Shown one piece after another: positions 1-47,110 of a DNA stretch of 64,000 nucleotides; positions within the stretch are counted from its first letter, which is position 1; every line of letters begins with the position of its first letter. The stretch is from a bacterium (GTDB lineage Bacteria; RBG-13-61-14; DATKZS01): the NCBI GenBank assembly GCA_035527835.1, contig DATKZS010000109.1, positions 819 to 64,818 of the forward strand. Reading direction: 5' to 3'. The notes beneath the pieces were generated by a model. The model searched no databases. It saw nothing but the letters and a program-made list of their open reading frames with translations, and had not been told where the DNA came from. The translations under genes were made by a program, and so were the position numbers.

Positions 1-42
1 AAAGGTGGTTGGTGGTACTTAATCATAATCTGTTAAGATTCC

Positions 43-1179
43 TTAGGCAATCGCATCGTTTATTCCCCACTTCGGCGGATACCAATAATTGATTTTATTT
101 AGTTTGGGTTTGAAAATCTGCTTAATCCTTTTCCTCTTGTTGTTACCTTGAATATCCGGATGAGCAATCCTCGCATATTTAGATATTTCGCAAAAAAGAT
201 TCTGGCAATCAACAAGCTTAAGTCTTCTGCCCCAGATAGTCTTAAATTGTATATCGAGCATATTGAAAAATTCATCCTGTCTTTCTGTAACCATCCTTAT
301 GAGATCCATCTCGTTAATTCCACCTAGATCGGAGAAGCACTTTCTAATCCCATCAATAGCTCCCGGCCCAGGGATAACAAATTGCATTTCAGAGAAGTTT
401 AAGACCTTACTGTAGTTAATATCGGTAACTAACTGAAAGGCCAGGAAGTCTCCTATTAGAGGATAAAATTTCAGTAGCTCAAAGGCATGCTCCATGCTTT
501 CAGACTCTGATAATTTTAAGGGAAGATCGTCCTCAATCATCATTTCAATTAATCTTAATATGTTTCTATGTTTCCTTTTAAGACGTAACCCTTTCGCCCT
601 TGAGGGCATGATATAAGCGGCAGAGAAAATTGGGGATCCTGAACGCATCGCTTTCATTAATATCGAATCAAAGCATTTATATGAATAATCAGCATAATTA
701 ATTGTTCCAACTTCCTTGCTTATTATTTCCCATGTCTCGATCTTGTTGAATAGCCTAAAAAGCAATATTCGAAACACGGTATCACTATTAGACCAATCTC
801 CATTATAAATTACATTTCTTATCATATACTGGCTCACGCGGTCAGATGCCCGATATGCATTTGTAAACTTGTATTTCTGTAGAATTTTATCTTCTGTCCA
901 TGGGGGCCTTTCGTTTGAAAGTCTTCTGAAAAATATATTTTGTCTTTCAGCCGCAAACCTCCAAAAAGTCTCAAACACTTTTGTCGGCTTTGCTGGAAAT
1001 AAGCGGGAATAAAGATCGGCATTGTTCAGTTGTTTACCATAATGCTCCTTTTCTTCAAATGCCTCAAACGATCTCTGCAATGGAGTTTCAAAGGCATTAC
1101 TATTATTAATAAGAGATGATTCGGATTTTATCCCCCCTTTTTTCATGTCTTTTCCGCTTCTTTGTTCTCTTTGTTCCAA
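43..1179 (-). CDS. hypothetical protein (378 aa) in low-GC island; possibly nucleotide/DNA-modification related
   Basis: Long ORF in a region of clearly lower GC than the rest of the window, with an AT-rich, Lys/Asn/Ile-rich composition. Its 3' end overlaps the next ORF's 5' end by 37 nt. I could not assign any family with confidence. Confidence 0.5.
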   Translation of the reverse strand: MEQREQRSGKDMKKGGIKSESSLINNSNAFETPLQRSFEAFEEKEHYGKQLNNADLYSRLFPAKPTKVFETFWRFAAERQNIFFRRLSNERPPWTEDKILQKYKFTNAYRASDRVSQYMIRNVIYNGDWSNSDTVFRILLFRLFNKIETWEIISKEVGTINYADYSYKCFDSILMKAMRSGSPIFSAAYIMPSRAKGLRLKRKHRNILRLIEMMIEDDLPLKLSESESMEHAFELLKFYPLIGDFLAFQLVTDINYSKVLNFSEMQFVIPGPGAIDGIRKCFSDLGGINEMDLIRMVTERQDEFFNMLDIQFKTIWGRRLKLVDCQNLFCEISKYARIAHPDIQGNNKRKRIKQIFKPKLNKINYWYPPKWGINDAIA

Positions 1180-1547
1180 TCAGGAATTGTCTCCTTAAGC
1201 TTACTAATGAATTCTGAAGCATCTTTCTTTTTGACCTTGCCTGGAGCCGCAACTGTTGCTATGCAATGCACAGTTGTGAGCTGCAATCCCATTTCATGCG
1301 CCATGAACTGTCCCAATTGATAAAGGCCGAGATAATTTCCATATGCCCTTTCAAAGATGTGTTGCTTCGCGTAAAGTCCGATCACGATAAGATCGTTCTC
1401 CTCAGGAGAAAACAAGACATGCTGAAGGCAAGGAAAGCCCCTTCGCCTTTGATGAGAATGATCCAAGGCCGGGTCAAATATCGCTGCCTGAAGCGCGCTT
1501 CGGCGATGGTTATCTTTGTCTACAAAGGTTTCTATTATATGATCCAA
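1143..1547 (-). CDS. nucleoside 2-deoxyribosyltransferase-like (NDT/DNPH1-fold) protein, 134 aa
   Basis: The segment NDLIVIGLYA...AHEMGLQ...APGKV resembles the NDT core NDIMLGVYI...GMELGYA...GK with its catalytic Glu. The gene lies in the same low-GC island and is co-oriented with the 378-aa ORF. Confidence 0.4.
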   Translation of the reverse strand: MDHIIETFVDKDNHRRSALQAAIFDPALDHSHQRRRGFPCLQHVLFSPEENDLIVIGLYAKQHIFERAYGNYLGLYQLGQFMAHEMGLQLTTVHCIATVAAPGKVKKKDASEFISKLKETIPDWNKENKEAEKT

Positions 1548-1586
1548 TTGATTAATTGGATGATCCTTTGAGCTATGAGCGGGGCA

Positions 1587-1803
1587 GGGGGTCAGACCCT
1601 GACTTGTTAGTTTAATTGCTGCCTCCCGCTCCCGATAAAAGCCGTTCCCTGCCGCCTCGCCTCGAAGGCGCGCCGGCGCTTTGGATTGGGGCGGGGGGTC
1701 AGACCCTGACTTGCTGACTTGTTAGTTTAATTGCTGCCTCCCGCTCCCAATGAAAGCTGTTCCCTGCCGCCTCGCCTCGAAGGCGCGCCGGCGCTTTGGA
1801 TTG
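1587..1803. repeat. tandem direct repeat, 2 copies of about 102-111 bp
   Basis: Copy 1 runs about 1587-1688 and copy 2 about 1693-1803. They are nearly identical, differing by an 8-nt insertion (cttgctga) and a few substitutions. Each copy begins with a hairpin-capable GGGGTCAGACCCTGAC. Confidence 0.85.
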
Positions 1804-1976
1804 CGCAAGCTTGCTTGCGCTTTGGTTCCGGGAGCTTGCTCCCGGATGGATTGAAAAGCTTGTTCCGGGGACCGGCAAGCAAGCTTGCCGATCTAAAGCG
1901 GATGATCCGCCTCAGGCGGCGGCAAGCCGCTTGCAGCGGCGCAACCGCGCGCACTCCAAATCGCTCCCCGCCGAAA

Positions 1977-2290
1977 TTTCAAACCACAAACCTCAAACCC
2001 CAAACCTCAAACCTCTTCTCCCCTTGGTGTCTTGGTGGTTTTCTTTCTCTTCTCTCTTCTTCCCCTCTTCTCAATTACCTTCATACCCTTGGTGTCTTGG
2101 TGGTTCTCTTCTTCTTCTCTTCTCTTCTCCCCTCTTCCCCGCCCTTATACCAACATCCATTGCAAACGCAAGCAGATATTATCGGTAAAATTTACCTGTC
2201 GGGGTGCGACGTTTTTACATATTATAGGGGGGCAATTCGGGGTTTGAGGTTTGGGGTTTGTGGTCTGTGGTTGAACAGGGGAGAGGAGGA
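1977..2290. repeat. inverted pair of heptanucleotide tracts, (CAAACCY)n and its reverse complement (GGGTTTG-like), flanking a CT-rich core plus an AT-rich core
   Basis: Sequence caaacctcaaaccccaaacctcaaacc at 1981-2012 is mirrored by gggtttgaggtttggggtttgtgg at 2239-2262. Between them lie two copies of ccttggtgtcttggtggtt (about 2024 and 2090). Confidence 0.7.
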
Positions 2291-2619
2291 GAAAAAAGTG
2301 TATAGGCACGCTCAACAAGGGCCTCGAAAGCGGTTATTTGGGTGCGACGTTTCGTGGCCTGATTTGTGGGACAGAGTGGCCCGGGTTTCAGGCCGCGGGT
2401 GGCCCGGACGGTGGGACGCGGGAGGCCGGAGATTGGGCCAGCCGTGGTCCAGTTCAGGGTCTTCGCGGCCTGGGCCCTGGGCCTCAAAATTCAGGCCACG
2501 GGCGGCCAACTCCCGGATTTCTTTGGACCCCGGGTCTAAAACGGGGGAAAATTTTCCGGGAAACGGCCTCTGCGGCCTAAATTTGACGACAGTGGTCAAG
2601 GCCCAAATTTTTTTCTTCC

Positions 2620-2850
2620 ATTTGCTTCCCCGTGTTCCCCGTTCCTCGTTCCGAGTTCCCCTCTCCCCGTTCCCCGCTCGTCGCCCCTCGCTCCCCGCTC
2701 CTCGCTCCTGGCTTCCTGCTTCTTGCCCCTGGCTTCTTGCTTCTGGATTCTTGCTTCTGGCTTCTGGATTCTTGCTTCTTGCTTCTGGATTCTTGCTTCT
2801 GGCCCCTGGCTGCTGGCTACTGGCTACGGGCTTCTATCGGCTTCGCGGAT
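2620..2850. repeat. long degenerate heptanucleotide tandem tract (CGTTCCC / CGCTCCT / TGCTTCT / GGATTCT units)
   Basis: Period-7 units can be read across about 230 bp. The region is non-coding, and the overlapping ORFs 1731..2873 and 2632..2913 are low-complexity artefacts. Confidence 0.7.
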
Positions 2851-2888
2851 TTGCTCAGCGGCGGCCGGCGTGATAATTTTTATAGGTT

Positions 2889-4586
2889 ATGGCGGAGAAC
2901 AAGATGGAGCTGATGAAGATTGCGGACAGCGGGGACCTGGCGGAGGTTCCGTTCGGTCGGGTGTTTTACCGTTTTTGCCGGGAGAAGCGGACCGGTGTTC
3001 TGGATGTTCGGGACAAGCCGGCGGCCGGGGGCGGCAGGATTTTGAAGCGGGTGATGATGGTTGAGGGCTCGCGGTTCGCGGCTCAGGGCGGGAGCGCGAT
3101 GGAGACGCTGCCGCAGATCCTGTTGGACCAGGGCAAGCTGACCCCGGATGGTTTTGAGGCGCTGAAGGCGGAGTTGAAGGGCGATTGGGGGAAGATGGAG
3201 CAGAAGGTGCTGGCGGGCGCGGTGGTGCCGGGGTCGGAGATCCCGGAGCTTCTGGCGCTGCAGGCGGAACTGAAGGTGCGGTCGCTGCTGTGCCTGTTCC
3301 GCGGGCATTACGATTTCAAGCCCCAGCCGGTTTCGCAGGTTATGGGCAAGCACATCCTGATGCCGTTCGGGGTTGAAAAGGCTCTGTTGGAGGGCGCGAT
3401 CGAGCACTACCCGGCGGCGCGGATCAATAAGGAGTTTCCGGGGATCGAGAAGAAGAATTTCCGGCCGGCGGGTGATTTCAAGGAACGGATCGGCGGGTTC
3501 GGGCTGCCGCCGAGCGTTCTGCGGTGGCTGCGGTCGTCGCCGGAGTCGTTTTCGTGGGACGGGTTGTTGCAGGGCGCGCCGGTGGGTGCGGAGCAGGCGG
3601 CGGTGATGCTGCTGGCGCTTTATTTCACCGAGGTGATCGTTCTGGCGCGGGCGGACGATGATTTTCCGGTGGGGCGGGCATATCTGGAGGCGCGGGAGGA
3701 AGCGGTTTCCCGGGCGGAACAGAAAGAGGAGAAGCGGGCGGCCGCCGAGCTCAAGTCCGACGAGACCAAGGCGGAGAAGGAGGAGAAGAAGGCGGAGAAG
3801 TCGGCGGAGCCGAAGCTCCCGATCGAGGAGATGCTGGACAAGGAGATGAGCGACGCGGAGACGCTCAAGGAGATCGAGCGGCTGCTGACGACGGCGCACA
3901 ATACCAAGGGCACGTATTTCGATTTGCTGGGGCTGAAGGAGAGCACCCCGACCTCGAAGATCAAGCAGGTTTATTTCAAGTTCGCCAAGAAGTTCCACCC
4001 GGACGCGAACCCGGAGCTGTTCAAGGGCGAGGTCAAGGATCGGGTGGAGGAGTTGTTCACGAAGCTCTCCGAGGCCTACAACACGCTCGCGGACGGAGAG
4101 TCGCGGCAGCAGTACGCGAACTCGCTGAAGAGCCAGGTCTCGAAGCAGGACATGGAGAAGGGGCAGCGGGCGATCGAGGCGGAGATGGATTTCCAGAAGG
4201 CGGAGGTCCTGCTCAAGCGCTCGGCGTGGGCCGAGGCCGCGGGGCTGTTGGAGCGCGCGGCGCAGCTCCAGGCGGACGAGCCGGAGTACGGGCTGTACCT
4301 GGCGTGGGCGCGCTACAAGCAGAAGGGGCCGTCGGAGGCCGCGCGGGCGCAGAAGGCGATCAAGGCGGCGCTGGACAAGCGGCCCAAGGTGGCGGACGGC
4401 TATTATTACCTGGGCCAGTTGGCCAAGGACGAGGGGAACCTGGACAAGGCCGAGGAATATCTCAGCAAGGCCTCGCAAATGAAGCCGCACGATATTGACA
4501 TCAAGCGCGAGCTCCAGCTCATGCAGCGGCGCCGGGTCAAGGAGGCCACCACCAAAAAGGGCGGGCTGTTCGGGAAGAAGAAGTGA
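2889..4586 (+). CDS. DnaJ (J-domain) protein with DUF4388-like N-terminus and C-terminal TPR repeats
   Basis: J-domain signature YFDLLGL...KKFHPDANPE with the HPD tripeptide is present. The C-terminus has a TPR-like AxxAxxYY..G...G pattern, and there is a charged Lys/Glu-rich linker. Confidence 0.7.
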   Translation: MAENKMELMKIADSGDLAEVPFGRVFYRFCREKRTGVLDVRDKPAAGGGRILKRVMMVEGSRFAAQGGSAMETLPQILLDQGKLTPDGFEALKAELKGDWGKMEQKVLAGAVVPGSEIPELLALQAELKVRSLLCLFRGHYDFKPQPVSQVMGKHILMPFGVEKALLEGAIEHYPAARINKEFPGIEKKNFRPAGDFKERIGGFGLPPSVLRWLRSSPESFSWDGLLQGAPVGAEQAAVMLLALYFTEVIVLARADDDFPVGRAYLEAREEAVSRAEQKEEKRAAAELKSDETKAEKEEKKAEKSAEPKLPIEEMLDKEMSDAETLKEIERLLTTAHNTKGTYFDLLGLKESTPTSKIKQVYFKFAKKFHPDANPELFKGEVKDRVEELFTKLSEAYNTLADGESRQQYANSLKSQVSKQDMEKGQRAIEAEMDFQKAEVLLKRSAWAEAAGLLERAAQLQADEPEYGLYLAWARYKQKGPSEAARAQKAIKAALDKRPKVADGYYYLGQLAKDEGNLDKAEEYLSKASQMKPHDIDIKRELQLMQRRRVKEATTKKGGLFGKKK

Positions 4587-6275: not shown

Positions 6276-9200
6276 ATGGCCGATGAAAAGGCTATACTTG
6301 AAGCGCTGCTGACCTTCGCTGACACCGTAACGGCCAAGATGACCACTCTGACCCCGGGTGAGCCGGAAGATCAATTGCGCGCCCCTTTTGAAACATTTAT
6401 TCTCGAAGTCGGACGTGTCCTTTTCCGTAAAATCATCTGCACAGGAGAAACCAGGCTGCCGGGCCGGATTGGGAAGCCGGATTACGCCGTCCATGCAGAT
6501 GATCTATTAGCCGGCTACGTGGAAATGAAAGCCCCCGGCGTCGGCGCGGACCCCGGCCGCTTCTCCGGCCACAACCGCGATCAATGGAAACGCTTCAAGG
6601 CGATCCCCAATCTCATCTACTGCGATGGAAATGAATGGGGATTGTTCCGCAACGGCGAAAAGATCGGCTCAATCATCCGTCTATCAGGTGACGTGGCCGC
6701 CGACGGCAAGAAGGCCGTGACCTCGGAGAACGCCCGCTCCATAACAAAACTCCTGACCGACTTTCTTTCCTGGAAGCCCATCATTCCCACGACATCAAAG
6801 GGCGAAATAGACTTCAAGGGGTTCGCCGACCTGCTGGCCCCGTTGTGCCGGATGCTGCGCGATGACGTGACCGACGCGCTCAAGGACCCGCAATCGCCCC
6901 TCGTCCAACTGGCCAAAGACTGGCGCCAGCTCCTCTTCCCCGATGCCCCGGATGAGCAGTTCGCCGACGCCTACGCTCAGACCGTTACCTTCGCTCTGCT
7001 GCTGGCCCGCAGCGAGGGCGCCGATCCGCTCACCCTCGACAATGCCGAGAAAGCCTTATCCGCGGAACACGGTCTGCTCTCCCGCGCACTCCAGGTCTTG
7101 ACCGATCCCGGAGCTCAATCTGAGATCTCCGCCTCGCTCAATCTGATCATGCGCGTCGTCGCCGAAGTCCCGCCCCTCTCGCTGTCCGGCCCTCAAGACC
7201 CCTGGCTTTACTTCTATGAATATTTTCTCGCCGCCTACGACCCCAAACTGCGCAAGGACGCCGGGGCCTACTACACTCCAGTCGAGGTCGTCCGCGCCCA
7301 GGTCCGGCTTATTGACGACCTGCTGGTGAACCGGCTGGGCAAGCCGCTGGGCTTCGTTGATTCCGGAGTCGTCACGCTCGACCCCGCCGCCGGCACCGGC
7401 ACCTATCTGCTCGGCGTCATCGGGCACGCCCTCGGCCGGATCGAGGCAGAACAGGGCGCCGGCGCCGTAGCGGGGATGGCCACCGCGCTGGCCGCCAACC
7501 TCTACGGCTTCGAGCTCATGGTCGGACCTTACGCCGTAACCGAATTGCGAGTCAGCCGCGCACTAAAGAACAAAGGCGCCAGCTTGCCCCCTGAAGGCAC
7601 GCGCGTTTATTTGACCGACACGCTGGAAAGCCCAAACGCCAAGCCGTCAGAACTGCCTTTCTACCTCAAGCCCATCGCAGAGCAGCACGCCAAGGCGCTC
7701 AAAGTCAAGATCAATGTCCCGGTCATCGTCTGCCTGGGCAATCCGCCCTACGACCGCCATGAAGCCGCCACCGCCGAAAACCAGGCCCGCACCGGGGGGT
7801 GGGTCCGATGGGGAGACGACGGCAAGGGTTATCGCCTGAAGGATGACAGGGAAAAAGATGATGAATTTGAAGACGCTATCTTCCATGACTTTCTCGAATC
7901 CGCCAAAGTGGCAGGCCACGGCGTCCACGTTAAAAACCTCTACAACCTCTATGTCTATTTTTGGCGATGGGCACTATGGAAGGTTTTCGAGCACTCAACA
8001 GCATCCGGGCCGGGCGTCGTCAGCTTTATCAGCGCTTCAAGCTACCTCGACGGCGACGCCTTCTGCGGGATGCGCGAATACCTGCGCCGCGTCTGCGATG
8101 AAATCTGGATACTAGACCTCGGCGGCGAAGGGCGCGGCACGCGCAAGAGTGATAACGTATTCGCCATCCAAACGCCCGTCGCCATCGGCATCGCCGTCCG
8201 CTCGGGCAAGGCTAAAAAGGAAAAGCCCGCCAAGGTCCATTACTCCAGCATTGAAGGCGCACGAGATGATAAGCTCGCGAAGCTGGACGCCATTAAAGAC
8301 TTCAAGAGCTTGAAGTGGCTGGACTGCCCCGAAGGTTGGCAGACCCCTTTCCGCCCGGCGGGCAAAGGCAAATATTTCGAATGGCCGCTCCTGACCGATC
8401 TCATGCCGTGGCAACATTCGGGAGCTCAGTTAAAGCGAACCTGGCCTATTTCTCATGAGCAGGAGACGCTTAAGAAAAGATGGCGGGCGCTTCTTGGTTC
8501 AAAGGATATGAAACAAGCTTTTCGCGAAACCAGGGACCGAAAAGTCGTATCTCCTTGTCCCCAGGCACCGCCCAATGGCAATGGTGAAAAAGCATTGAAG
8601 TCCTTGCCCCAAGACTCAGAAGCGCCTCCCATTGTGCGTTATGCTTATCGCTCATTCGATCGCCAATGGGTCTTTGCCGACAACCGTTTAGGGGATTTCC
8701 TGCGCCCGGTACTGTGGGGGATACATGGCGAACGGCAGGTGTATCTGACAAGCCTGTTGACTAAATTCCTCGGTGCAGGTCCGGCGCTCACGACTTGCGC
8801 AGCTATTCCCGACTTGGACCATTTCTCGGCACGCGGGGCTAAGGATGTCGTCCCTCTCTACCGCACCGCAGACGCATCCGAGGCGAATGTCCTGCCCGGC
8901 CTGCTCGATCTGCTGGGCAAAGCGTACAGGCGCGTGGTGAAGCCGGAAGACTTCCTGGCCTACATCTATGGCGCGTTGGCGCAGCCGGCCTTCACTGGAC
9001 GTTTTCGAAACGAATTGGAAACGCGCGAGCTGCGCGTGCCGGTCACGAAGAATGCCGCGCTTTTCGAGAAGGTGCGCGACATCGGCTCGCGATTACTGTG
9101 GCTGCACACCTATGGCGAGCGGTTTGTGCCGAAGGGTGAAAAGCGCGGCCAGGTCCCGCGCGGCTCTGCTAAGTGCACCAAGGCCGTACCTGGCGGTCAG

Positions 9201-9617
9201 GAAGGCTATCCGGAGTCTTTCGAGTATGACGATGCAACGCGGACGCTCCGTGTCGGCGCGGGCGAGTTCCGGCCCGTGGCGCCCGAAGTATTCGCTTTTG
9301 AGGTTTCTGGGCTCAAGGTGGTGCAGTCCTGGCTCAAATACCGAATGAAGAAAGGCGCGGGCAAGAAGTCCTCGCCTCTGGACGACATCCGGCCGGAGCG
9401 TTGGACCAGTCAATTCACCACCGAACTTCTAGAGCTGCTCTGGGTGTTGGAAGCGACGGTGGAAGGTTATCCCGAGCAGGCGCGGCTTTTGGATGCCGTG
9501 ATTAAAGGTCCCTGCTTCACCGCCCATGAGCTGCCCCCCGTCCCGGCCGCCGCCCGCAAACCTCCTTCCTCGCGGGAACTCGATCTTCTTGACCAGATGG
9601 AGCCGGATGAGGGTTGA
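6276..9617 (+). CDS. type IIL (MmeI-family) restriction-modification enzyme: N-terminal PD-(D/E)xK nuclease, N6-adenine methyltransferase, and C-terminal TRD
   Basis: The N-terminus APFETFILEV ... DYAV ... YVEMKAPG parallels the MmeI D-x(n)-EMK nuclease motif. Methyltransferase motif I LDPAAGTGTYLLG and motif IV NPPY (N6A class) are present. A long C-terminal region follows. Confidence 0.65.
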   Translation: MADEKAILEALLTFADTVTAKMTTLTPGEPEDQLRAPFETFILEVGRVLFRKIICTGETRLPGRIGKPDYAVHADDLLAGYVEMKAPGVGADPGRFSGHNRDQWKRFKAIPNLIYCDGNEWGLFRNGEKIGSIIRLSGDVAADGKKAVTSENARSITKLLTDFLSWKPIIPTTSKGEIDFKGFADLLAPLCRMLRDDVTDALKDPQSPLVQLAKDWRQLLFPDAPDEQFADAYAQTVTFALLLARSEGADPLTLDNAEKALSAEHGLLSRALQVLTDPGAQSEISASLNLIMRVVAEVPPLSLSGPQDPWLYFYEYFLAAYDPKLRKDAGAYYTPVEVVRAQVRLIDDLLVNRLGKPLGFVDSGVVTLDPAAGTGTYLLGVIGHALGRIEAEQGAGAVAGMATALAANLYGFELMVGPYAVTELRVSRALKNKGASLPPEGTRVYLTDTLESPNAKPSELPFYLKPIAEQHAKALKVKINVPVIVCLGNPPYDRHEAATAENQARTGGWVRWGDDGKGYRLKDDREKDDEFEDAIFHDFLESAKVAGHGVHVKNLYNLYVYFWRWALWKVFEHSTASGPGVVSFISASSYLDGDAFCGMREYLRRVCDEIWILDLGGEGRGTRKSDNVFAIQTPVAIGIAVRSGKAKKEKPAKVHYSSIEGARDDKLAKLDAIKDFKSLKWLDCPEGWQTPFRPAGKGKYFEWPLLTDLMPWQHSGAQLKRTWPISHEQETLKKRWRALLGSKDMKQAFRETRDRKVVSPCPQAPPNGNGEKALKSLPQDSEAPPIVRYAYRSFDRQWVFADNRLGDFLRPVLWGIHGERQVYLTSLLTKFLGAGPALTTCAAIPDLDHFSARGAKDVVPLYRTADASEANVLPGLLDLLGKAYRRVVKPEDFLAYIYGALAQPAFTGRFRNELETRELRVPVTKNAALFEKVRDIGSRLLWLHTYGERFVPKGEKRGQVPRGSAKCTKAVPGGQEGYPESFEYDDATRTLRVGAGEFRPVAPEVFAFEVSGLKVVQSWLKYRMKKGAGKKSSPLDDIRPERWTSQFTTELLELLWVLEATVEGYPEQARLLDAVIKGPCFTAHELPPVPAAARKPPSSRELDLLDQMEPDEG

Positions 9618-16226: not shown

Positions 16227-17159
16227 ATGGGTAAGGCAAATAAGCAAAAGCCCGATAGCAAGGCAAAGGCTGGATGTTTTAGGTATCCTCTAATTGTTAT
16301 TATTGCCTTCTTTATCTATGCCCCTCCTGTTTGTGTGAGCAAGTCTCAAAACCATATATTCGTAGATGGTCCTTCTGATCTTTATGATATCCATAGCCTG
16401 GCTCGGAGAGGCAAGACCCCTCTTGTCATTATCTACACCCTATTTAGTCCCAAATTGGTGAATTCGATTGATGATGGTAAGACCCCTCTCCATCTAGCAG
16501 CGGCAAACGGCCATACTTTCATGGTTCACTATTTGGTTTGGATAAAGGCTGACGTAAACAATAGGGGTCGAACCACGCCGCTAGAAGAAGCTCTCATCAG
16601 CGCCGCCAATATTAATCGCGCCAACCGCATTGCAAAGTATCTTATTGATCATGGATCTAAAATAAATCCTAAATCGGGTAGAGCGCCATTAAGCGTTGCT
16701 GTTTCCTATTGTAATACAGAAATGGCAAGCTATCTAATTGATAAAGGGGCGGATGTCAATTATGGCTCTCCGATTCTGCTCGCTACTCGTTGTGATGGTA
16801 ACATGTTAAAACTACTTGTGGATCATGGAGCAAATATTAACGCACGTTATAGGGATGGGAGGACTTTCCTGCACCAATTGGTTCTTGAAATGCCGAGTCC
16901 TCGATATGAACTCTTTCCTATACTTGCCGAAAATGGGATTGATCTCAATGCACAGGACGAACAAGGAAATACCTTTGTTCATTTGGCAGTTAATAAGGGA
17001 GATATAAAATTTATAGAACTTGCCATTGAGTATGGCGCTGCTGTGAATATCAATAATAATGAAGGAAAATCTCCTCTTGACCTAGCATTGGAAAAACCCA
17101 AGTATAAGATAACTGAGATTATAATTAACCAGCTGATAAATGAAGCTTCCATAAAATAG
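16227..17159 (+). CDS. ankyrin-repeat protein with N-terminal signal/TM segment (low-GC island)
   Basis: Ankyrin motifs GKTPLHLAAANGH...LV are repeated several times. The region is AT-rich relative to its flanks, and a GGAGGG Shine-Dalgarno precedes the start. Confidence 0.8.
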   Translation: MGKANKQKPDSKAKAGCFRYPLIVIIAFFIYAPPVCVSKSQNHIFVDGPSDLYDIHSLARRGKTPLVIIYTLFSPKLVNSIDDGKTPLHLAAANGHTFMVHYLVWIKADVNNRGRTTPLEEALISAANINRANRIAKYLIDHGSKINPKSGRAPLSVAVSYCNTEMASYLIDKGADVNYGSPILLATRCDGNMLKLLVDHGANINARYRDGRTFLHQLVLEMPSPRYELFPILAENGIDLNAQDEQGNTFVHLAVNKGDIKFIELAIEYGAAVNINNNEGKSPLDLALEKPKYKITEIIINQLINEASIK

Positions 17160-41459: not shown

Positions 41460-42386
41460 ATGCCAAAAAAACGAGTTGAACTGGTAACTCATATATTCAA
41501 AGGCGCTCGTTTCGAGGATCACGGCATTGATATAGACGTCCTTGAGGAGTTGATTGTATATAAAAAAATCTTGGTTGAAACAGCCAAGGAACTTTGGCGA
41601 CGTCATAACCCTGATCGTCAAAGATTGCCGAAAAATTTTGAAGATTCTCTCTGCATCAAGTTTTATGAGCTTCGGGAAGGCTCAACTGGCGTTCCGATGA
41701 TGCGGGAAATTGAATATGATAACGGCGAACTCCCTCTTCCACGGCCTGAGGATGAACTGGATGAGGCTGTGAAGGTTGTTGCGGAAGCGGAAGATGCGGC
41801 CAATAATGATTACCCGCTCCCGGATAATTTTCCTAAAAATATCATTCCACTGTTCGATAAATATGGAGACAGTTTGAGAGAAGACGAGAGTTTTGAGCAC
41901 CAGCCGGCAAACTCCGAACGACGTATCATTTATAATAAGAAGACTCGTGAACGGTTGCATAGTTGGTCAGACGGTCAATACGAAGACATGATTGAGCTGA
42001 GCGGGGAAGTCCGAGCCGCAGACCTTGACCAAGGAAATTTCACCATTCGTCTGGATGACGGGACCAAAGTCGCCGGAAAATTTAATCCGAGCCAGGAAGA
42101 AGAGGTAACGCTCGCACTCCGCGAACATGAGAAGAAGAGGCTAAGCGTGAAAGGTAGAGGAGGGTTTTCCTCGCCCGAAGGCAAGCTGAGACGTATTATC
42201 GCCGTGGAGCAAATGATAATTCATCAAGGTAATGGCGACGTTTTTGATGCCAGCGCCCGACCCATTTGGGAAGTCGTTTCCGAGATTGGGGCCTCCGTTC
42301 CCGAAGAGGAATGGGCCAAGGTTCCCACCGATCTTTCGAAAAACCTTGATCATTACTTGTACGGCGCACCCAAGGATGCGAAATGA
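41460..42386 (+). CDS. hypothetical acidic protein (308 aa), putative partner of the downstream PIN toxin (low-GC island)
   Basis: AT-rich codon usage unlike its flanks. The stop overlaps the PIN gene start (ATGA). The C-terminus ends ...KVPTDLSKNLDHYLYGAPKDAK. Confidence 0.5.
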   Translation: MPKKRVELVTHIFKGARFEDHGIDIDVLEELIVYKKILVETAKELWRRHNPDRQRLPKNFEDSLCIKFYELREGSTGVPMMREIEYDNGELPLPRPEDELDEAVKVVAEAEDAANNDYPLPDNFPKNIIPLFDKYGDSLREDESFEHQPANSERRIIYNKKTRERLHSWSDGQYEDMIELSGEVRAADLDQGNFTIRLDDGTKVAGKFNPSQEEEVTLALREHEKKRLSVKGRGGFSSPEGKLRRIIAVEQMIIHQGNGDVFDASARPIWEVVSEIGASVPEEEWAKVPTDLSKNLDHYLYGAPKDAK

Positions 42387-42793
42387 AAAAAATTTTCGCC
42401 GATTCCTCTTATTGGATTGCTCTTCTTAATCCTCGAGATGAACATCATGATAAGGCAAAAATAGTTTCTTCTTCTCTCGGACAGATACATATCGTCACCA
42501 GCGACATGGTTTTAACGGAATTCTTAAATTCCTTTTCCACTAGAGGAACTTTATTGCGAAAAAGGGCAGCAGAAACCGCCAAGGGAATCTTGAACAATCC
42601 CAATGTGAAAGTTGTTGCTCAAACCAGGGAGCAATTCAATGAAGCCCTCTCGCTATTTTCCGACCGAGAGGACAAGGAATGGGGCCTTACTGACTGTTCC
42701 TCCATTAAGATCTGCATTGATAACAAGATCAATGAGGTGTTAACCGCCGACCATCATTTTCAACAAGCCGGCTTGATCGCGTTGTTGTTATAG
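42383..42793 (+). CDS. PIN-domain ribonuclease (VapC-like toxin)
   Basis: The N-terminal FADSSYWIAL motif (first acidic residue) and the later acidic residues TSD and LTDC are present. The length is about 136 aa. Confidence 0.75.
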   Translation: MKKIFADSSYWIALLNPRDEHHDKAKIVSSSLGQIHIVTSDMVLTEFLNSFSTRGTLLRKRAAETAKGILNNPNVKVVAQTREQFNEALSLFSDREDKEWGLTDCSSIKICIDNKINEVLTADHHFQQAGLIALLL

Positions 42794-47012: not shown

Positions 47013-47110
47013 GGATGCCGGAAGCGGAGAGGAGCGAGGAGCGAGGAGCGAGGAACGAGGGAAGCCCCGGCCTCAAGCCTCACGCCGGCCGCCGCACGTC
47101 TCTTCCCTCG
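47013..47110. repeat. inverted heptanucleotide-repeat pair, (GAGGARC)n and its complement
   Basis: Sequence gaggagcgaggagcgaggaacgaggg ... cctcgatcttcgctccccgcccgtcgctcctc. The same unit family occurs as its reverse complement at 2640-2700. Confidence 0.6.

Follow-up and report, generated by a model that had tools for sequence, protein, structure and literature searches.

The locus analysed here raises the question of what a short low-GC segment at the edge of an otherwise high-GC bacterial contig encodes and how it reached its present state. The 64-kb stretch of DNA that we examined (the window) begins with this island at positions 1 to 1570 (no strand), delimited by its composition and by its identity to the contig L001. 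The GC content is ~37–39% from position 1 to ~1570 as compared with ~65% elsewhere in the window; over positions 1–1000 it is 0.37, against 0.58–0.70 across most of the window. When 126 sliding windows are ranked by tetranucleotide composition, the initial 1.5 kb deviates most, with a distance of 0.070 (median 0.024, MAD 0.003) and a GC fraction of 0.39 (median 0.646). These profiles support a foreign, horizontally acquired composition. An earlier note, made from the letters alone, had described a low-GC island of foreign composition, cut by the window start and carrying two overlapping minus-strand genes, and had proposed a k-mer and GC comparison and an upstream extension; all of this description was borne out. 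The two ORFs lie at 43–1179 (378 aa) and 1143–1547 (134 aa), both read from a TTG codon. The island is 100% identical to L001 1–1589, which reaches further left, and L001 and L002 add 678 nt before the composition shifts, including the remainder of a radical SAM pseudogene, so that the whole island spans ~2.25 kb. The same island junctions are found in independent assemblies, and its sequence is 100% identical across all of them; the population thus gives no signal of continuing decay, which counts against reading the island as decayed. Leftward, all assemblies end at the same place. A first metagenome pattern scan for sequence left of the island returned nothing, and a second returned six contigs whose common part is the terminal ~127 nt only, which points to these nucleotides being part of a multi-copy element.

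We then assigned the longer ORF. It had been considered to lack an assignable family, but it is a full-length member of the HMUDK_hel family (PF18723), with E 5.7e-107 and 357.7 bits against a Pfam cut-off of 25, and with residues 66–345 aligned to profile positions 1–281 of 281. PF18723 is its sole domain. An N-terminal Thymidylate_kin domain (PF02223) is present in about half of the homologues and absent from the window protein, and standalone HMUDK_hel genes are common. As no P-loop kinase domain is present, the window protein is predicted not to be a kinase itself. The likelier start is the ATG at 1146, giving a 367-aa protein encoded at 43–1146 on the minus strand; this start produces an ATGA overlap (1143–1146) with the stop codon of the upstream gene. 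All of the invariant residues are retained. However, the protein deviates at 11 conserved columns, the most of any copy (median 2), and the ORF is probably drifting. In structure comparison the fold resembles helix-hairpin-helix (HhH) glycosylases, with Foldseek E-values that are not significant and no detectable sequence similarity to HhH-GPD DNA glycosylases or QNG1 (DUF2419). On predicted models, it may be likened to both the phage 5-PmdU glycinyltransferase and queuosine-5'-monophosphate glycosylase. No PADLOC v2 model matches either of the two window proteins.

The smaller ORF had been read as a nucleoside 2-deoxyribosyltransferase (NDT)- or DNPH1-like, possibly SLOG-like, protein, for which the lack of an NDT-fold match was named as the outcome that would speak against it. 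That outcome was obtained, as neither PF05014 nor any related family matched at E<=1 in Pfam, NCBIfam or PHROGs. Instead, TIGR03283 matches with E 2e-8 and 33.9 bits, far below its cut-off of 174.55, and the alignment covers the second half of the profile; a Pfam search gave no PF00303 match. We modelled a full-length homologue (P0130) with AF2 (pLDDT 89.9), and its top 50 PDB neighbours in Foldseek are all thymidylate synthase (TS) or MilA, a CMP hydroxymethylase (prob 1.00, E ~2e-6). The TS fold is therefore established on the homologue and not on the window fragment itself. Judged from this model and from the alignments, the 134-aa ORF is the C-terminal half of a divergent TS-fold protein, belonging to a small, previously unnamed family of which ~130 members were detected. 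An NDT/DNPH1 or SLOG-like gene next to a 378-aa protein of a new family deserves almost no credence: a short motif resemblance seen by eye speaks for it, while the missing PF05014 match, the TS profile match, the exclusively TS or MilA neighbours and the PF18723 assignment of the longer protein speak against it.

The TS-like gene is represented in the window by a 3' fragment at 1143–1574 on the minus strand, corresponding to the C-terminal ~140 of ~235–265 residues. The reading frame is open to 1724, but family homology starts only at ~1557–1574, so the ORF is incomplete as a gene. Full-length homologues align to the fragment from their residue ~89–106 onward; measured against a length of 234, the first ~90 residues are missing from the window copy, or as many as ~120 against a length of 262 (~40%). 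The conserved N-terminal motifs TVANTIFP and NRxGxYFxRL are missing, while two others, GFPC(L) with its cysteine and ERAYGNYLGL, are retained. The dipeptide P135-C136, which never varies within the family and is kept in the fragment as GFPCLQ, aligns in hhalign with IPC of a ThyA-like paralogue, and we take its cysteine to be the equivalent of ThyA Cys146. The family shares the fold, the Pro-Cys nucleophile motif and an Asn-containing motif with the ThyA/T4 gp42/MilA superfamily, but is too divergent for PF00303 and falls below the TIGR03283 cut-off; the window copy differs further by its missing N-terminal part.

Both the TS-like homology and the low GC content stop at a breakpoint at 1557–1580 (no strand). 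A repeat-rich, hypervariable block (1581–2888, no strand) follows, between the island and a DnaJ/TPR gene. The earlier note had proposed that the island ends at this block at an integration boundary. The edge does coincide with the block, but the truncation point is inside the TS-like gene, and since the boundary truncates a gene, we regard the right edge as a scar left by deletion or rearrangement and not as an intact boundary. A tandem repeat (family D15/D3) begins at 1581, and the block contains two tandem units of ~107–115 nt, palindromes, a 32-nt inverted repeat, 65-nt direct repeats and a 7/21-nt periodic array. Copy number and indels differ between assemblies. We treated the block as non-coding because the long ORF crossing it lacks a Pfam match and translates into low-complexity sequence; an Rfam scan of positions 1–3200 gave no match. 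Elsewhere in the window, no other copy was found except for a ~24-nt match (95.8%) near 47,030–47,061.

On the left side, the first 26 nt of a radical SAM pseudogene (MIKYHQPPF...) occupy positions 1–26 on the minus strand, and the rest lies beyond the window in L001 (1564–2267). The CX3CX2C motif is CPLSCCHC, within L001 1564–2004, and PF04055 matches the first 147 aa with 57.8 bits (cut-off 29.5). After residue ~139 the gene is disrupted by a ~100-nt insertion and a frameshift, and its 3' part is truncated at residue ~202 of 230–237 or more. Consistent with this, tblastn searches with intact homologues (P0242–P0244) give matches that are split over two frames and end early, identically in five assemblies. 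At the left junction (L001 ~2268), the gene is cut short at its 3' side by a multi-copy element. The intact homologue P0243 reached no curated NCBIfam subfamily. A viperin identity, raised by a weak pVip match of the fragment (PADLOC v2, E 2e-7), was rejected, as the fragment is nearer to MoaA/NirJ/PqqE/BlsE-type cores.

These genes correspond to parts of a conserved bacterial cassette, in the order XRE-HTH, M78 peptidase, TS-like, HMUDK_hel (with or without a fused dTMP kinase) and a variable last gene, which is MazG_C, ThyA-like, radical SAM or TCAD9; TIR and Nmad2 are present or absent. We confirmed 595 loci (~600) in species-representative genomes, on chromosomes of many phyla. Among the 82 loci analysed, the HTH and M78 genes are found in 60, and a TS-like gene is directly upstream of HMUDK_hel in 67. 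The gene directly downstream encodes MazG_C (36 loci), a ThyA-like protein (24), a radical SAM enzyme (4) or TCAD9 (2); intact counterparts of the radical SAM gene occur in L017, L058, L091 and L019. The HMUDK_hel proteins of the cassettes are strongly conserved, bacterial members being 55–61% identical to the window protein, and in 89% of 75 loci the cassette is poorer in GC than the flanking DNA. L017 holds an intact low-GC cassette of 4.5 kb (L017 5566–10049) in a host of 62–70% GC, with an XRE-HTH repressor, an M78 (ImmA/IrrE-type) peptidase, TS-like, HMUDK_hel and a radical SAM enzyme in this order. The window copy retains the arrangement in part: the TS-like fragment directly precedes HMUDK_hel, in the same orientation and with the ATGA overlap. 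However, no XRE-HTH or M78 gene, TS-like N terminus or other cassette part was found in the whole 64 kb, and the repeat block occupies the place of the HTH/M78 pair. A literature search, outside which Iyer 2013 and Burroughs 2015 fell, returned no papers on HMUDK_hel/PF18723, MazG_C or 'DNA base hypermodification protein'.

It is thus highly probable that what remains in the island is the 3' part of a low-GC operon of the rare radical-SAM subtype, which arrived by horizontal transfer and has since decayed. Three lesions are seen. First, the operon has lost its regulators and the first ~90–120 TS-like codons, with the break beside the hypervariable block; second, the radical SAM gene has suffered its insertion and frameshift; and third, the 3' end of that gene has been removed by the multi-copy element. 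HMUDK_hel is the only intact ORF of the relic, and the window copy has presumably lost its function. Alternatively, the remnant might still be working, with a standalone HMUDK_hel, possibly together with the C-terminal TS-like fragment, kept for a role of its own; recognition or excision of 5-hydroxymethyl-uracil-type bases in invading phage DNA would be an example. The protein may be expressed and useful alone, because its ORF is complete with a full-length Pfam match, its invariant residues are kept and the ATGA overlap is preserved, and both its HhH-glycosylase-like fold (the Foldseek E-values being not significant) and the frequency of standalone genes are in line with this. We nevertheless consider retained function unlikely, since standalone HMUDK_hel genes are nearly always inside a full cassette across the 82 loci, the deviations at conserved columns are the highest of any copy, the partner genes on both flanks are broken, and a TS domain would probably not fold with its N-terminal ~40% missing.

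A prophage fragment with thymidine-hypermodification genes of the phage 5-HMUDK/aGPT-Pplase pathway, shielding phage DNA, is another reading. Relatives occur in 443 phage records, including SP10-like and ViI-like phages having hypermodified thymidine; one phage relative is annotated as aGPT-pyrophosphorylase clade 1, and phrog_2396 is matched. However, the window protein is at most ~32% identical to the phage proteins (5-HMUDK and the aGPT-Pplase/PaMx11 gp46 PUGT; PMC5889632, PMC8989533, PMC11472151), well below its identity to the bacterial cassette members. Adjacent phage structural, integrase and replication genes are absent, and the bacterial genes, unlike those of the phage pathway, are under a conserved HTH/M78 pair of their own in cellular chromosomes of many phyla. 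The radical SAM proteins differ as well, M6 gp53 being described as SPL-like, whereas the window protein has a MoaA/PqqE/BlsE-like core. A prophage origin is accordingly very improbable. Even more improbable is that the segment is foreign to this genome, being either archaeal DNA or the product of a chimeric assembly. In favour of this, the GC contrast is extreme and the title of L014 places a short contig (2407 nt) in a Thermoplasmatota archaeon MAG, but this contig has high-GC flanks on both ends, and its label is explained by composition-based misbinning. The island-repeat junction is spanned identically by MEGAHIT (ERZ27256834, 108 kb; ERZ27256828), JGI (11.7 kb) and Logan contigs, and L017 provides an analogous low-GC cassette within a high-GC genome. 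Debris of transferred genes, as we interpret the island, accounts for the odd composition, the contig breaks and the archaeal misbinning of the short contig.

The one experimentally tested relative so far is distant. DS-4 (working name NTTI) is an E. coli system listed among those validated against phage (DefensePredictor, Science 2026; PMC13092281) and comprises a TS, a dNMP kinase, HMUDK_hel, TIR and Nmad2; the supplementary tables of that study give a protection against lambda of ~0.9 log, the plaques being small. Its HMUDK_hel (WP_087900470.1) is likewise standalone, shares 32% identity with the window protein (E 1e-31) and adjoins a TS-family gene and a nucleotide kinase. The TS of DS-4 and the ThyA-like gene of the cassettes share 27% identity, and a module of Tmk-HMUDK_hel and ThyA-like, with or without TIR and Nmad2, recurs in loci related to the window gene. 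On the other hand, the TS of DS-4 is of canonical length and belongs to PF00303, while its counterpart in the window is a small and divergent TS-like fragment. The window contains only the HMUDK_hel homologue and this fragment of the DS-4 set, with no kinase, TIR or Nmad2 in 64 kb; in their place is a radical SAM gene. The two systems also differ in gene order and partners, and the window copy is degraded.

In an intact cassette, the HTH/M78 pair may repress the operon until stress or infection is signalled. The TS-like enzyme, with its retained cysteine nucleophile, would then add a one-carbon group to C5 of a pyrimidine nucleotide, and the kinase domain, where the cassette has one, would phosphorylate the C5-modified nucleotide. 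HMUDK_hel, through its HhH glycosylase-type fold, might bind or flip the modified pyrimidine, and the last variable gene, here radical SAM, could complete or exploit the modification, the outcome being anti-phage defence by nucleotide or DNA modification. We find it rather doubtful, though conceivable, that the radical-SAM subtype (intact in L017, L058 and L091) is a distinct inducible anti-phage system, in which the TS-like and MoaA/BlsE-like radical SAM enzymes would jointly produce a pyrimidine nucleotide or DNA base with a novel modification at C5, HMUDK_hel would be an HhH-type subunit recognising the base or nucleotide, and the HMUDK_hel of the window relic alone would still be under selection. 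For this window, the result is mainly a correction: both genes can be assigned, and the feature is debris from horizontal transfer. The general theme of nucleotide, DNA-hypermodification and defence biology was rightly sensed in the earlier note. The wider value lies in the cassette family, which is found in at least ~600 species-level genomes, has its own HTH/M78 switch and interchangeable last genes, and is a good candidate for nucleotide-modification-based immunity mirroring phage thymidine hypermodification. In favour of a link to defence, genes neighbouring the homologous loci include NB-ARC, TIR, dCTP-deaminase, JetD, HipA and AbiE genes, and a Type ISP R-M gene is located 4.7 kb from the island in the window.

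We found that the start of the window very probably holds the remains of a multi-gene cassette. GC content is 0.37 at window 1-1000 and 0.50 at 1001-2000, while most other kilobases lie at 0.58-0.70. In 100-nt steps, it stays at 0.34-0.44 until about 1400, passes through 0.52 and then 0.44 across 1401-1600, and reaches 0.57-0.64 over 1601-2000. The first 1.5 kb has a tetranucleotide distance of 0.070, the largest among 126 overlapping windows (median 0.024, MAD 0.003). Thus, the low-GC island that an earlier note had described at the window edge is borne out by both measures. A look-up by exact protein match recovered the island DNA on several contigs. One of these (L001, 2407 nt) matches window 1-1589, reverse-complemented, at 100% identity and reaches 818 nt beyond the window start, exposing a radical SAM gene. 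The same DNA on L014 (DATLAF010000250.1, 2407 nt) is filed under a ‘Thermoplasmatota archaeon’ MAG (protein HUT00684.1), and the identical protein HUT53797.1 is encoded on a 114.6-kb contig from a ‘bacterium’ MAG. The 2407-nt contig has high-GC flanks at both ends, and the junction between island and repeat block is reproduced in MEGAHIT, JGI and Logan assemblies, including 108-kb and 11.7-kb contigs. The archaeal label is probably due to composition-driven misbinning, a simpler explanation than an artefact.

The two overlapping minus-strand genes reported in the earlier note are present. The long ORF (43-1179, minus strand) encodes 378 aa from a TTG start. Most gene callers prefer an ATG at 1146, which yields 367 aa and makes the start codon overlap the stop codon of the upstream gene (ATGA). 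This protein had been regarded as having no assignable family, but it is no orphan: it belongs to HMUDK_hel (PF18723), and a large protein search gave 8000 or more homologues (E<1e-5), the nearest non-identical ones among the matches listed sharing 55-61% identity. The homologues are either Thymidylate_kin + HMUDK_hel fusions (~565 aa) or standalone HMUDK_hel proteins (~330-385 aa) like that of the window, and NCBI names them ‘putative DNA base hypermodification protein’ or ‘nucleotide kinase domain-containing protein’. The predicted structure has a pLDDT of 83.5 with a disordered N-terminus of 49 residues. The paper on gp46, a thymidine-hypermodification enzyme of phage PaMx11, describes a fold resembling that of a glycosidase or DNA lyase, with the target nucleotide flipped. 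Among the phage relatives of the window protein are those of SP10-like and ViI-like phages and a gene annotated as aGPT-pyrophosphorylase clade 1, at identities of at most ~32%.

The short ORF (1143-1547, minus strand; 134 aa, TTG start) had been given a nucleoside 2-deoxyribosyltransferase (NDT)-like core. No NDT/DNPH1 match was found for it, and its only meaningful matches are thymidylate synthase (TS) models (TIGR03283, E 2e-8, profile positions 98-189 of 201; phrog_5131, weak). It belongs to a small family (129 matches) whose full-length members have ~235-265 aa and no Pfam domain. The AlphaFold model of one such homologue, P0130 (pLDDT 89.9), has only thymidylate synthases or the CMP hydroxymethylase MilA among its top 50 PDB neighbours (prob 1.00, E ~2e-6, TM ≤0.59). 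By the criterion set out in the earlier note itself, an NDT or DNPH1 identity is therefore ruled out. The family has a YGNY motif and an invariant Pro-Cys, which aligns with the IPC of a ThyA-like paralogue of canonical length.

In full-length TS-like homologues, only residues from ~89-106 on can be aligned to the island, and the conserved N-terminal motifs TVANTIFP and NRxGxYFxRL have no counterpart there. The INQL motif lies at 1545-1556, the open frame upstream of it is translated repeat block, and the first tandem repeat unit begins at 1581. The homology end and the repeat start place the break inside the TS-like gene, at ~1557-1580. Judging from these alignments, the right-hand boundary is a truncation scar within a gene and not a clean integration end. 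The block itself (1581-2888) consists of tandem, inverted and 7/21-nt periodic repeats, without any Rfam or Pfam match. It lies upstream of a DnaJ/TPR gene and is polymorphic between assemblies, while the adjacent island is invariant: the number of 21-nt units at ~2732-2773 differs by -2, 0 or +1, and in the L003 assembly a 64-nt deletion takes out one of the 65-nt repeat copies (2053-2116), with SNPs clustered at 1852-2162.

Directly downstream of HMUDK_hel, with its start codon at window 26, is the radical SAM gene (motif CPLSCCHC; PF04055 at 57.8 bits), which has few homologues (12 matches, 230-237 aa). Homologue residues 3-139 are found in one frame; an insert of ~100 nt containing stop codons comes next, after which residues ~137/150-202 are matched in a different frame, and at least the final 30 residues are missing. 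Five contigs, assembled independently, show exactly this pattern. The gene stops where a multi-copy sequence begins (TTATTAAGGGGAGCAAGG..., given also as TTATTAAGGGGAGCAAGGTAATTTGGACAATTTTCCCTCATTTTCATGCCGCC...), at 2268-2407 of L001, 678-818 nt left of window position 1. The same ~127 nt end six other contigs of the same sample series (L094-L099) after unrelated DNA of 30-60% GC, so that the sequence borders at least seven unrelated flanks. Every assembly halts after about one k-mer length of it, as is characteristic of multi-copy elements; this one is probably the terminus of an IS or of some other mobile element. Its presence accounts for both the contig ends and the 3′ truncation. Elsewhere, the gene for a distantly related TS-like paralogue (243 aa) in L013 (1999-4951) is directly followed by a radical SAM gene of the island family, which is intact (237 aa), and by a UDG + SocA_Panacea fusion; HMUDK_hel is absent from this set, so the TS-like and radical SAM pair also exists without it.

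We then investigated the cassette in other genomes. A scan of one genome per species confirmed at least 595 loci, in Chloroflexota, Planctomycetota, Cyanobacteria, Acidobacteriota, Proteobacteria and others. Mapping reference components by tblastn onto 82 loci gave an XRE-type HTH gene followed by an M78 (ImmA/IrrE-like) peptidase gene in 60, a TS-like gene directly upstream of HMUDK_hel in 67, a dTMP-kinase domain fused to HMUDK_hel in about half, and a TIR + Nmad2 gene pair in 15. The gene immediately downstream encodes MazG/MazG_C (36 loci), a ~335-aa ThyA-like protein (24), radical SAM (four) or TCAD9, then MazG_C (two). Cassette GC is below flank GC in 89% of 75 loci, a pattern that fits frequent horizontal transfer. 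The best model for the former state of the window locus is L017, a 4.5-kb block of 32-41% GC within a 62-70% GC genome, with intact HTH (115 aa), M78 (289 aa), TS-like (249 aa), HMUDK_hel (362 aa) and radical SAM (350 aa) genes. The components missing from the island were found nowhere in the 64-kb window.

The window copy has thus been damaged in three independent ways: its 5′ part is deleted, an insertion with a frameshift interrupts it internally, and a repeated element truncates its 3′ end. The system as such should be dead, and we regard it as very probably a relic. That HMUDK_hel is still useful alone is improbable: its ORF is intact and keeps 96/96 invariant columns of a 31-sequence alignment, but it departs from consensus at 11 of the 139 columns that are highly conserved, where the 30 homologues do so at 0-8 (median 2). 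Most of these changes are conservative and in the AT-rich direction, with two exceptions (S to F and E to F). This excess suggests relaxed constraint, short of proof.

The only experimental handle found for cassette function is DS-4 (working name NTTI), a validated E. coli defence system comprising thymidylate synthase, small kinase, 340-aa HMUDK_hel, TIR and Nmad2 proteins (DefensePredictor, PMC13092281). Its HMUDK_hel is 32% identical to the window protein (E 1e-31) and its TS 27% identical to the cassette ThyA-like gene (E 3e-18); the five-part set also exists in L022, L026, L062, L071 and L081. Defence genes abound in annotated neighbourhoods of homologues (NB-ARC/STAND, TIR, dCTP deaminase, JetD, HipA, AbiEii, DUF1156). 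A defence gene is also near the island, 4.7 kb away: a Type ISP-like restriction-modification gene (6276-9617, plus strand; 1113 aa; N6_Mtase weak, Type_ISP_C). The fold and family assignments are established; beyond them, we infer that the intact cassette is an inducible nucleotide- or DNA-modification defence, with putative chemistry and trigger. The TS-like enzyme would derivatise a pyrimidine nucleotide at C5, the kinase, where present, would phosphorylate it, HMUDK_hel would recognise the modified pyrimidine, and the last gene (MazG_C, ThyA-like or radical SAM) would complete or exploit the modification chemistry.

The superfamilies of both window proteins have already been described, a relative of the system has been validated by experiment, and the window copy is degraded. 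Nothing in the searchable literature appears to describe the cassette-wide architecture, the unnamed TS-fold family or the radical SAM subtype, though Iyer 2013 or Burroughs 2015 may do so; all three lend some interest to the cassette family and not to the window copy. Two further low-GC patches are found on the plus strand. One (45%, 16227-17159) encodes a 310-aa ankyrin-repeat protein. The other (~50%, 41460-42793) encodes a 308-aa protein without Pfam match and an overlapping 136-aa PIN-domain protein, which look like a toxin-antitoxin pair.
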